Assembly (NCBI GenBank): GCA_040758255.1
Contig: JBFLVX010000001.1
Location: 132 to 64,131 of the forward strand
Direction: 5' to 3'
Source: Nitrospirota bacterium
GTDB taxonomy: Bacteria > Nitrospirota > Thermodesulfovibrionia > UBA6902
Length of the DNA stretch: 64,000 nt
In this document: positions 30,188 through 33,100 of the stretch, in pieces
Position numbering within the stretch: the first letter of the stretch is position 1
How the letters are laid out: each line of letters starts with the position of its first letter
Made by a program: the position numbers and the translations under genes
Notes under the pieces: model-generated
Database searches by the model: none
The model's input: only the letters and a program-made list of their open reading frames with translations
Told to the model about the DNA's origin: nothing

Positions 30188-33100
30188 TTAATTTTTACCG
30201 CCGGGTTTCCTGATAATAAGGTTCTTTAATTCGGTAAACTGCGCCCAGAACCAGCCGCCTTTCTGGCGCTTGTTGAGCTCTTTCAGCTCTATTATAGCGC
30301 GTTCATGGCTGATCCTCTCGGTTATCATATCTTTATAAATACGATCCGCCTTCTTGCGCCGCTTTACAGCATCCCCGATATCCAGAAACGCCTCGATCGC
30401 GTCAACTATGGTTATTAAGAAGCCTGCTTTGCGCTGGGTCTCCATCTTGGAACGCACCCATGTCATTGCGCCTTGAAGGTTTGAGAGCACTACAGCCAAT
30501 TCAGCCTGGGCTTTTTCATTCTGCGCAAGCGGGGCTTTCTTCGCAATTTCAACCTTTTCTCTCACATGATCCTCGCAGAGCACCCCGTACTCCTGAAAAA
30601 CAGAGAGGTCGCTTAGTCCCTCCTCAAACTCCCTTGGGTCATTACTCGGCAATTTTGCGCAATAACTGAAACACTTCTCCCACGCCTGCCAGCGGTAGAC
30701 AAAGTCGAGCCCTGTGCCCTTTATATTCTGGATCCCCATTACCCGGTTAAGAAGCCCGGGCGGCGTCTCCTGAGCTATGATGCTCACGATCTTGTCTCCG
30801 GTTGCGTGAAAGTCCCAGATGACAACGATCTTCCTCTCAAACCATCTCCACATCATCTCACGAAATTCTTTATCAAGCCCTTCTTTTTGAAGTCCTGCGC
30901 CGCTTAACCGCTCTGAAAATCCTCTGTATTCTTCATACAGCGATGCATACTCTTTTAAATGCTTAATGAGATCATCGCTGTATTTATCGAGGCCTTCGGC
31001 ATCGAGCCTCTCCTTAAGTTTGTCAGGCGCATTCCAGAAGGATGTAATATCAGCCTTCTCATGGTCAACCTTAAGCCCCTTCAGCATTTCGCGGAGCCTT
31101 TCAATAATCTGCTCTTCAGATACAGGTATCCTCATCCTGCGGGCTGACTGTTTCAGTATCTCATGAGGAGGCGGGGGTGTCTCGCCTGTATCAGGCCACA
31201 GGCTTATCTGTACAATATATTCCTGCCAAGCCTCCTGTATATAGCCCGTAAGTCCCTTAAGGTTTGAGCCTATCAAAAAATGTCTGTCAGCGTTCGCGTC
31301 TTCAACCACTATTTTTGCAAAGAGCCGGGAGCGGGTTACGCGGTCTGCCCGGTTATTGACGACTGTTGAGAGCCAGACGCCCGGCTCCGCTTCATAGTCA
31401 TGCTCCTTAAAGCCCATTCTCTGCCAGTTGCTGAGGAAACCGTAGCGTTCGTTTGCGGACATGCCGTTCACGAACTCCAGCCTGCGCGATTTAACGGACG
31501 CTATGGGGAACGCCTTTAGCACTCCGATATCAGGGATAACCCTGTCAGCCATCTCCTTTATAGCAAAATCCTTGTCCATCCCAAGCTCTTCCGCAACCGA
31601 AAGCACAAGGGCGATATTGTAAGGATGCTCCTGATAAGGGAAGCGTTCAAGCACCTCAGGAGTCAGCATTCCTGCCTCAAGCCAGCCCACGAATTTGATA
31701 TTGGTCTTTAATTTCTTTGCAGTCTCTATGAGCACAGGCCTCATCTGATCTTCGCTGCACAAAACAGTGCCTGATTCAGGAATGAAGTTGGCTATGACCT
31801 CAGGAATATTTATTCCGGCAGGCCCCTGAAGGTCTTCATGGTCAGGATAGGTGTTCGTGATAGTTGATATATCGTCTCGTCCCCATTTGCGTTGGAGTAT
31901 CTTTACATATGACGGCGTAAGCCCCATGCACTCCCAGAGAAAGACATCAGCCTTAAGCCCTCTCCCAAGCCGCATCAAATTGAACTGCTCCCATATCGTT
32001 GCCTTGTCATAAGGCCTGAAGAGAAACATCTCCTGGGTCTTTTCATAATGGCGCGCGTGAAGGAACATCGCCTCGCAGCCTGTGGTCTTTGAGACGAGGC
32101 TGTAGCCCTGTGAATTTATCAGCGCTGCCTTGAGCCTCTCAACGCCTGACTTCCCGCGCGTTCCCCATCCTCCAAGCATAAGGGGAAAGCTGTCACGTAT
32201 CCTGCGTATCATTCTGCTCTGTAAAAGAATGCTAAGCACAAACGCCAGTATTATGATTCCGGTAAAGATGCCGAGTTCATATAGCGAGTTTTTATATACA
32301 GAGAAGAAATAATCCTTCATGTCCGCCCATGTGTTCGGATCAATAAAGGCCAGCAAAGGGAAGAAGCGCTTAACAGAAGGGTCAGGAGAGGTTTTTACAT
32401 TATCAGCCTCATGCTCTGAATGTCTTATTGTAAAACCAAGATCCGTGAGCGCACGTATATATGTTGACGGACTGCTCTGGCTCCCTTCCTGCCAGTTTCG
32501 GAGGCGCGCATAATGAGGGAAATTCCATGTCAGCTTCATATAGGCAAGCAGCCTCCTGGAGATTAATTTCGGCGGCGCAATCTCAGTGACGCCCTCGCTT
32601 GTAAATATCTTTACCGTACCGGATGATAGCCCGTACCTCAGGCTTGATACCGCCTCATCCGCAAGCGGAATATACGGCCTCCATCCTGATTCATAAGGCA
32701 TGAATAGAGGCTCTCCCGGGACCTTTGTCTCTGTCAGTTCCGCCATAATTGAGGACGGGACATGTATGTTGCCTGTGAATATTCTGCCTATTGTGTGGCT
32801 GAATGCCTGCCTCTTGTCAGGAGAGGGATGCCGGAACTCATGCAGGAACCTCCATAGCCTGAAATTAAAGAAGTTGCCTCTCGCAATATACTTTCCGAAT
32901 ATGCCCTGCCCAATCTGGCAGCCGTAATCTTCCTGGCACAGGACAGAGAGCGTCCTTGCAATTGTCTCAATTTTAAAGTTTGAAAAAAGCGTGATGGGAA
33001 GGCGTCTCTGCTTTCCGGGCTTTATCTCCGCTATTTCCTTGAGCAGTATCTCCTTAACCATTCTCGCTTCACGGTTATATTCCGCCCATATCTGCTCCCT

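Follow-up and report, generated by a model that had tools for sequence, protein, structure and literature searches.

A HEAT-repeat–PgsB fusion protein in a conserved five-gene operon points to a poly-γ-glutamate-type synthase and export system of diderm bacteria

What does a PgsB/CapB-like amide ligase do inside a protein that opens with HEAT-like repeats? The question is posed by a 1397-amino-acid (aa) protein whose open reading frame (ORF) occupies 30188..34381 on the minus strand of a 64,000-nucleotide (nt) stretch of Nitrospirota bacterium DNA (GCA_040758255.1, contig JBFLVX010000001.1, positions 132 to 64,131), referred to here as the window and used as the coordinate system throughout. 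The ORF contains the region 31110..32290, in which inspection of the letters alone had pointed to a complete PgsB-type ligase domain behind repeats and a transmembrane helix (hereafter the original prediction). Our analysis places the ligase in the last gene of a five-gene operon, and we regard it as practically certain that ligase module and operon are real and functional. That the 1397-aa protein contributes the ATP-dependent amide-ligase subunit to a poly-γ-glutamate (γ-PGA)-type synthase and export system adapted to two membranes is in our estimation the probable answer, if by no means a secure one. The fusion protein is organised as follows.

30188..34381, minus strand: HEAT-PgsB fusion protein, 1397 aa, last operon gene (ORF, TIGR04012, CapB BLASTP)
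32357..34381, minus strand: N-domain (residues 1-675), HEAT repeats and a conserved block (Pfam, alignment, profile)
33248..33511, minus strand: Pfam HEAT_2 match (residues 291-378; E=2.2e-7, 31.5 bits against a cut-off of 27.7)
32216..32275, minus strand: hydrophobic helix (residues 703-722; hydropathy scan), at a position homologous to the CapB/PgsB membrane anchor
31214..32185, minus strand: PgsB ligase module part 1 (residues 733-1056), with P-loop, KTTG, ECM, PDHED and NNRADR (TIGR04012, CapB, alignment, model)
30830..31213, minus strand: all-helical 128-aa insertion (residues 1057-1184) in the ligase C-terminal domain (model secondary structure, CapB comparison)
30656..30829, minus strand: PgsB ligase module part 2 (residues 1185-1242), last strands and helix, GxQNIKGxGL (CapB comparison, alignment, model)
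30191..30655, minus strand: C-terminal helical bundle (residues 1243-1397) in which several acidic and basic positions are invariant (alignment, model)

A search of the whole protein against NCBIfam aligned residues 709-1050 with positions 5-331 of the 380-position PgsB profile TIGR04012 (E=4.6e-61, 206.6 bits), and for the isolated ligase domain this profile was the sole match at E≤10 (209.6 bits). With the capBCADE locus of pXO2 as the canonical comparison set, BLASTP paired residues 697-1055 with residues 62-410 of Bacillus anthracis CapB without large gaps (27% identity, E=7e-36), the collinear alignment taking in the N-terminal hydrophobic anchor, and a hidden Markov model (HMM) of the family found CapB at E=4.8e-46. 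Neither Pfam Mur_ligase_M nor any other Mur or FolC model matched the ligase domain at E≤10; canonical CapB itself is matched weakly by Mur_ligase_M (E=1.6e-8). Against the Protein Data Bank (PDB), the family profile retrieved HEAT-type repeats but no Mur ligase by sequence, and neither the whole protein nor the ligase domain, used as sequence queries, retrieved anything. As the matches are PgsB-specific, the similarity exceeds the generic Mur-ligase level, and judged by its sequence the domain is specifically PgsB/CapB-like rather than a generic Mur ligase.

Alignment of residues 690-1397 of the window protein with 40 homologues (41 sequences from at least five phyla; homologues 44-94% identical over the whole protein and 49-94% over residues 690-1397) revealed GGWGTRGKSG (737-746), KTTG (765-768), ECM (817-819), TNxxPDHED (842-850), GPAG (853-856), NGMSAN (972-977), NNRxDR (1009-1014) and GxQNIKGxGL (1216-1225) to be invariant. 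All conserved PgsB blocks that the original prediction had listed in order are thus present and invariant in the 41 members, and the catalytic residues whose inspection it had recommended make up a complete Mur-type ATP/Mg site (P-loop, E817-C-M and PDHED 846-850).

An AlphaFold2 model of residues 690-1397 (predicted local distance difference test, pLDDT, 85.2; predicted template modelling score, pTM, 0.83) was matched by Foldseek to MurC, cyanophycin synthetase (CphA1), FPGS, MurT, MurE and MurF over 370-420 columns (E ~1e-7, probability 1.00); neither the fold nor the sequence searches of the PDB returned a PgsB, CapB or PgsC chain. The modelled fold of the ligase module is accordingly that of a Mur ligase, with a predicted central ATP-binding domain and a C-terminal Rossmann-like domain. 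In the model's secondary structure the latter is broken after residue 1056 by the 128-aa helical insertion, which canonical CapB lacks. It had been proposed that residues ~695-1090 hold the whole PgsB length; this was ~87% right, the last ~50 profile positions lying behind the insertion at 1185-1242. That segment, whose GIQNIKGTG resembles CapB GVGNIHGAA (a weak BLASTP local match to CapB 427-459, E=2.7), was assigned to the ligase from order, motif and model, so that the module appears to span residues ~697-1242. The C-terminal bundle beyond it (1243-1397) has no counterpart in CapB. Neither the split domain nor this bundle nor the five-gene operon had been part of the original prediction.

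For the N-terminal ~680 aa, the suggested PBS-lyase/HEAT-like repeats were borne out by the above-threshold HEAT_2 match, and the family profile retrieved PBS-HEAT-derived alphaRep proteins (E=1e-12) and the phycocyanobilin lyase subunit CpcF (5n3u_B, E=0.019) from the PDB. Between the repeats and the helix lies a strongly conserved block (~480-675; core ~515-620, window ~32520..32840) with the motifs HPSPDKRQAFxHTxGR, ETKVPGEPL, GWRPYxPL (GWRPYLPLxDE) and YTSEGVTE. No family or PDB match was obtained for residues ~515-620, whose level of conservation would be typical of an enzyme or a binding site.

The helix called ahead of the ligase is likewise there: a hydropathy scan of the 1397-aa protein found exactly one hydrophobic segment, residues 703-722. 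The PgsB anchor of Bacillus is needed for synthesis and tethers a catalytic domain that is cytoplasmic (PMC7490850). Here, the flanks are acidic before and strongly basic after the helix, so that a spanning helix would put the ~700-aa N-domain, which has no signal peptide, outside the cell. An HMMER scan with the N-domain recovered 310 cluster representatives at E≤1e-30, and ~19 of the best 150 (~13%) are separate proteins of 666-688 aa ending at query residue ~675. At one such split-gene locus (L090, 1126..3349) the N-domain stop codon and the ATG of the following gene overlap; that second gene starts ~30 residues before the hydrophobic helix and encodes helix and PgsB module. The natural split variants (L090; proteins P0261, P0264, P0265, P0267) have an N-domain protein of ~680 aa that is signal-less. 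The stand-alone N-domain, having no signal peptide, must be cytoplasmic. As the uncharged helix core measures only 14-16 residues in most family members and the N-domain is signal-less, either the helix may not be a classical spanning segment, or a conserved aromatic stretch before it may provide a second passage; any topology drawn for the fusion is a deduction from these features. A HEAT domain in the periplasm would be most unusual; one in the cytoplasm would imply a helix that crosses the membrane in no classical manner.

The same architecture was sought in databases, as the original prediction had advised. A word-indexed protein search gave at least 146 homologues; among the matches listed, all 120 are full length (1364-1477 aa, coverage 95-100%), and HEAT repeats, one hydrophobic helix and PgsB are conserved across the full-length homologues. 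Their hosts are Nitrospirota, Gamma-, Beta- and Zetaproteobacteria, Desulfobacterota (Desulfobacula toluolica), Planctomycetota and Verrucomicrobiota. A pattern scan over one genome per species found relatives in at least 589 species genomes; among the matches listed, 80 of 80 genomes belong to diderm phyla. Among the carriers in culture are Methylovulum miyakonense HT12, Desulfocicer vacuolatum DSM 3385, Desulfobacter latus, Halomonas daqiaonensis, Vreelandella massiliensis, V. rituensis and Ca. Uabimicrobium, and further carriers are Thiomargarita, Parabeggiatoa, Kuenenia, Electrothrix and Magnetococcus. In databases the family appears as 'PgsB/CapB' (JGI) or as 'HEAT repeat domain-containing protein' or hypothetical (NCBI).

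In D. toluolica, a Burkholderiales metagenome-assembled genome (MAG), a Verrucomicrobiae MAG and a JGI contig, the fusion closes a compact run of five co-directional genes, encoding in order a ~1085-aa CapC-domain protein, proteins of ~820, ~295 and ~1800 aa, and the PgsB fusion. The window holds the same five genes in the same order, all five reading frames intact, with the start of the fusion gene overlapping the end of the fourth gene by 20 nt. Its four partner genes are the following.

44865..48128, minus strand: first gene, 1087 aa; tandem PgsC/CapC (residues 24-193 and 229-340) and two degenerate PghP-like domains (~397-640 and ~700-871)
42416..44881, minus strand: second gene, 821 aa; a single membrane anchor at the N-terminus; order kept across phyla
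41545..42435, minus strand: third gene, 296 aa; signal peptide; predicted zinc amidohydrolase of the PghP / N-formylglutamate amidohydrolase fold
34362..39788, minus strand: fourth gene, 1808 aa; signal peptide, LysM-like insert, TPR-like region (~780-960) and beta-rich C-terminal ~300 aa

Of 80 genome loci compared by tblastn, 53 extend far enough upstream, and ~48 of these show the order 821-aa gene, 296-aa gene, 1808-aa gene, PgsB fusion; a few loci are permuted or lack the 1808-aa gene. Variants were noted in loci L037, L039, L019 and L034, where no 1808-aa gene separates the 296-aa gene from the PgsB fusion (two alphaproteobacterial loci) or the PgsB fusion lies upstream of the PgsC fusion (two loci). 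No 1808-aa gene was seen upstream of the PgsB fusion in the Thiomargarita loci L044 and L053, and in Vreelandella massiliensis (L085, at ~4567) the 1808-aa homologue gene is broken, the continuing ORF starting 'EEHTSELQSQFRISYAVFCLKKKK' and resembling a repeat or assembly element.

The first gene supplies the expected partner of a PgsB. PF14102 matches it in two stretches (148.7 bits against a cut-off of 27, E=1e-43), TIGR04011 at E=3e-21 (76.2 bits against an equivalog cut-off of 96.45), and BLASTP aligned it with pXO2 CapC at 3e-11 and 9e-4. Some 9-12 hydrophobic segments are followed by ~730 soluble residues; the last segment is preceded by a basic stretch (KMHEKSITLKVAR) and followed by an acidic one, a charge bias that suggests a periplasmic location of the soluble part. 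Two domains in this part resemble the 296-aa protein in hhalign comparisons (98.2%, E=3.6e-14 and 96.4%, E=1.4e-9; copy against copy 99.3%). Both have other residues in place of the zinc histidines (PA or PR for PH; QVRGY for QLHGF), and from these replacements the fused copies are probably non-catalytic polymer-binding modules.

The 296-aa protein itself carries a signal peptide that looks cleavable, and its family keeps P-H119, D123, T126, R149, D161, Q-x-H190-G, S210, H266-x-E268 and R274 invariant, H164 nearly so. Its AlphaFold2 model (pLDDT 84.6, from a shallow 17-sequence alignment) is closest to γ-PGA hydrolases and N-formylglutamate amidohydrolases, the best Foldseek match being the tubulin deglutamylase CCP5 (E=2e-5). 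For the γ-PGA hydrolase PghL, structure neighbours are 3a9l, 2odf and 2q7s, and zinc ligands (His40, Glu45, His103), catalytic residues (His78, Glu165) and a substrate-anchoring Arg171 have been described (PMC6506827). In an hhalign comparison with phage PghP, used only for motif register, H119, D123, H164, H190, E268 and R274 fall on H40, E45, H78, H103, E165 and R171 of PghP/PghL. From the modelled fold and these in-register residues, we read the protein as a putative periplasmic zinc γ-glutamyl amidohydrolase, its activity being deduced from them. In PghP/PghL (MEROPS M86) and N-formylglutamate amidohydrolases, zinc ligands, catalytic Glu and PGA-binding Arg appear to stand in register with invariant residues of the 296-aa family; unlike PghP/PghL, the 296-aa protein has an extra ~90-aa N-terminal alpha/beta extension, a signal peptide, Asp for the Glu zinc ligand and no significant sequence match, and its gene is chromosomal and synthase-linked rather than phage-borne.

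The 1808-aa protein has a weak LysM-like segment (residues 649-708, window 37665..37844, E=0.015), a TPR-like region with a weak TPR_2 match (E=0.066) and alternating hydrophobicity over its last ~300 aa, which may form an outer-membrane barrel. At the alignment position of the LysM-like insert, two homologues from Zetaproteobacteria-type loci (L022, L033) carry a SPOR domain (E=1e-12); an OmpA-family domain is present in one further homologue. Such varied peptidoglycan-binding modules, LysM-like and SPOR at one site and an OmpA-type one in another homologue, suggest that the protein is periplasmic and sits beside the cell wall. The predicted signal peptides and anchors of the partners would fit periplasmic locations. 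No family was assigned in Pfam, NCBIfam, PHROGs or PADLOC to the 821-, 296- and 1808-aa proteins or to the C-terminal parts of both fusions; the 1808-aa family profile found nothing in the PDB, and BLASTP found no internal repeats in the 821-aa and 1808-aa proteins or domains common to them. BLASTP of pXO2 CapA, CapD and CapE against the five operon proteins gave no significant match.

Here the five genes are interrupted by an insertion, and other genes lie on either side of the operon.

39789..41544, no strand: low-GC (0.385) 1.75-kb insertion between third and fourth genes, in this genome only and not part of the system
39789..40277, minus strand: truncated DUF1016_N / PADLOC PDC-S02 fragment, in the insertion
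40584..41396, plus strand: DUF6602 PD-DExK/NucC-like nuclease, in the insertion
29472..30176, plus strand: REC-PilZ response regulator, convergent with the PgsB fusion (Pfam)
48616..51306, minus strand: 896-aa protein immediately next to the operon on its upstream side; its C-terminus matches HATPase_c weakly, and it is a possible sensor kinase

The 1808-aa gene starts with TTG one codon past the stop of the DUF1016 fragment, with an AGAGGA motif 9 nt upstream. At locus L007 (5642..8742; fusion 94% identical) a different insertion of ~3.5 kb, carrying CopG-antitoxin-like, Unstab_antitox and Cys-rich genes, separates the 1806-aa gene from the PgsB fusion. Operon junctions in these Nitrospirota seem to attract mobile or defence cargo. 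The REC-PilZ neighbour recurs in L007-L009 and not in other phyla, and the genes downstream of the operon vary; it was rejected as a core component because it is kept only in close relatives, and may represent a lineage-specific cyclic di-GMP (c-di-GMP) input. Elsewhere in the window (22099..28676, minus strand), a gene resembling those of HNH type II restriction enzymes (PADLOC E=9e-99) adjoins an AddA/AddB-type helicase-nuclease pair.

From homology, fold, catalytic-motif conservation, synteny, signal peptides and anchors, as observed above, we infer which polymer is made, how it would cross the envelope and what the accessory proteins might do. The PgsB module, held at the inner membrane by its helix, would add glutamate or a close analogue to a γ-linked chain on the cytoplasmic side at the expense of ATP, paired with the tandem PgsC/CapC of the first gene as PgsB is with PgsC in Bacillus. 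The chain would enter the periplasm and there be handled by the two dead PghP-like domains, acting as polymer-binding guides, together with the membrane-anchored 821-aa protein. The secreted 296-aa PghP-like zinc hydrolase would trim or release it, and the 1808-aa protein, predicted to bind peptidoglycan and maybe anchored in the outer membrane, would hand it outward past the peptidoglycan. The HEAT N-domain, which also exists as a separate protein, might serve as a scaffold or regulatory module.

Compared with Bacillus PgsBCAE and B. anthracis CapBCADE, the ligase is homologous end to end, including anchor and ATP-site motifs, a PgsC/CapC homologue is in the operon, and a predicted γ-PGA-type hydrolase is encoded alongside, cf. 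Bacillus pgdS and capD. Unlike those systems, the ligase measures 1397 aa instead of ~390, with an added HEAT N-domain of 675 aa, the 128-aa insertion and, at the C-terminus, a bundle of 155 aa; PgsC comes as a tandem to which 730 aa of PghP-like pseudo-hydrolase domains are attached; the operon lacks PgsA/CapA, PgsE and CapD; and three large envelope proteins without a Bacillus counterpart are made in two-membrane hosts. The capBCA-type loci of Francisella and Fusobacterium nucleatum are likewise PgsB/PgsC-based and occur in hosts with an outer membrane, but have the small canonical three-gene layout with CapA and are not known to have dedicated periplasmic or outer-membrane parts, a HEAT fusion or PghP-like domains. 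One report counts Francisella among the γ-PGA capsule formers (PMC6506827).

The operon logic recalls the Bcs cellulose, Pga poly-N-acetylglucosamine (PNAG), Alg alginate and Pel systems, which also combine an inner-membrane polymerase, a periplasmic polymer-cleaving enzyme and a large exported protein that bears TPR-like repeats and ends in a beta-rich region (the barrel and TPR assignments being weak here), and close relatives share a PilZ neighbour. In contrast, the predicted polymerase is an ATP-dependent amide ligase and not a glycosyltransferase, which would make the product a polyamide, and no operon component is homologous to theirs by sequence. Cyanophycin synthetase CphA1 is a polyamide polymerase with a Mur-ligase-fold domain and is among the top fold matches, but is cytoplasmic, soluble and primer-dependent, has an extra ATP-grasp domain and no membrane partner, and gave no sequence-level match. 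We consider the chances evenly balanced that the operon represents a new class of trans-envelope machine, the first synthase-dependent polyamide export system in diderms, in which dedicated parts of the periplasm and outer membrane take the place of PgsA.

Several observations weigh against a γ-PGA-type synthase and exporter. PgsA is required in Bacillus, and neither the operon proteins nor the rest of the window gave a PGA_cap match that would indicate PgsA/CapA. The TIGR04012 scores (206.6-209.6 bits) fall below the equivalog cut-off of 222.7, a deficit caused by the displacement of the last ~50 profile positions by the 128-aa insertion. The substrate specificity of PgsB cannot be read from sequence, and the nature of the polymer is a deduction. 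A single helix would place the signal-less HEAT domain in the periplasm. Between the 296-aa family and seven phage PghP sequences, hhalign gave no significant score (E=0.069), no PF05908 or PHROG match to the 296-aa protein was found at E≤5-10, and one pattern, alternating hydrophobicity, is all that suggests the barrel of the 1808-aa protein.

Alternatively, the same machinery might make something other than free homopolymeric γ-PGA, i.e. another or a mixed polyamide, or a γ-glutamyl modification of an envelope acceptor (peptidoglycan stem, lipid or protein) that the HEAT domain recruits. The sub-threshold TIGR04012 score, the CapB identity of only 27%, the absence of PgsA, and a large N-domain, insertion and C-terminal bundle without PgsB counterpart all leave room for a different product; the Mur-fold enzymes FPGS, MurT and cyanophycin synthetase extend chains on defined acceptors, and 2odf, to which the 296-aa protein is structurally closest, is a member of the N-formylglutamate amidohydrolase group and no PghP. 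We nevertheless rate this as unlikely, if worth serious attention: PgsB and PgsC are the only sequence-level relatives, conserved residues of the 296-aa protein appear to correspond to the PGA-contacting H78 and R171 of PghP/PghL, and no acceptor-synthesis genes are conserved beside the operon in the compared loci.

Very improbable is a system that imports or degrades γ-glutamyl polymers, with the ligase-like module as an ATP-driven motor or sensor. One likely active and two degenerate PghP-like domains and several envelope-spanning accessory proteins would suit uptake, but the full ligase motif set (P-loop, Mg-binding Glu, DH motif) is invariant, the module is paired with PgsC as in synthases, and hydrolase genes are usual beside synthase genes, e.g. 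Bacillus pgdS and capD (established knowledge; PMC6506827). We give next to no credence to a generic Mur ligase of peptidoglycan or folate metabolism with incidental PgsB likeness, a reading that the predicted fold match to MurC, MurE, MurF and FPGS would allow and that the formal alignments reject, given the lack of any Mur/FolC model at E≤10 against ~207-210 bits for PgsB, the end-to-end CapB alignment with its membrane anchor, the operon link to PgsC, and the absence from the fusion of a counterpart to the N-terminal substrate-binding domain of MurC-F. Equally negligible is a chimeric assembly, a frameshift artefact or a decaying, inactive ligase: separate N-domain and PgsB genes in some genomes and the interruption of this operon could hint at one, but conservation across sources rejects an assembly artefact, with full-length homologues from independent sources (closed genomes included), 310 N-domain cluster representatives at E≤1e-30, invariant catalytic motifs throughout and five intact frames. 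A defence system was also rejected, the PgsB fusion and the 821- and 1808-aa proteins having no PADLOC match.

Returning to the favoured reading of a γ-PGA-type synthase and export system, what is known is that automated pipelines tag these proteins as PgsB-like and PgsC-like, with inconsistent annotation. A survey reported PgsB and PgsC homologues in more organisms than expected (PMC4497714). The original prediction had called the architecture unfamiliar from described systems, and a search of full-text literature, with subscription journals mostly outside its coverage, indeed returned no description of a HEAT-PgsB fusion, a tandem PgsC with pseudo-hydrolase fusion, a synthase-linked PghP-like protein or the five-gene operon. 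New here are the architecture and the accessory set built on PgsBC-based synthesis, with pseudo-PghP polymer-binding domains, a HEAT regulatory domain that is fused or split, and a synthase-linked PghP-like hydrolase as candidate new modules.

To our knowledge, γ-PGA synthesis is understood almost only from the small Bacillus PgsBCAE/CapBCADE systems, and we know of no solution, even for Francisella and Fusobacterium, to how an anionic polyamide crosses periplasm and outer membrane; nor are we aware that γ-glutamyl exopolymers have ever been looked for in the environmental lineages that carry the operon. Cultured carriers (Halomonas/Vreelandella, Methylovulum miyakonense, Desulfobacula, Desulfocicer) make the hypothesis directly testable. 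If it is true, the range of polyamide exopolymer producers would be far wider, extending over at least 589 species genomes (Nitrospirota, Pseudomonadota, Desulfobacterota, Planctomycetota, Verrucomicrobiota and others), and γ-glutamyl exopolymers would be expected in hundreds of environmental lineages, among them giant sulfur, cable and anammox bacteria, methanotrophs and Halomonas; the operon would then reveal a route by which a highly anionic polyamide passes the periplasm and the outer membrane.

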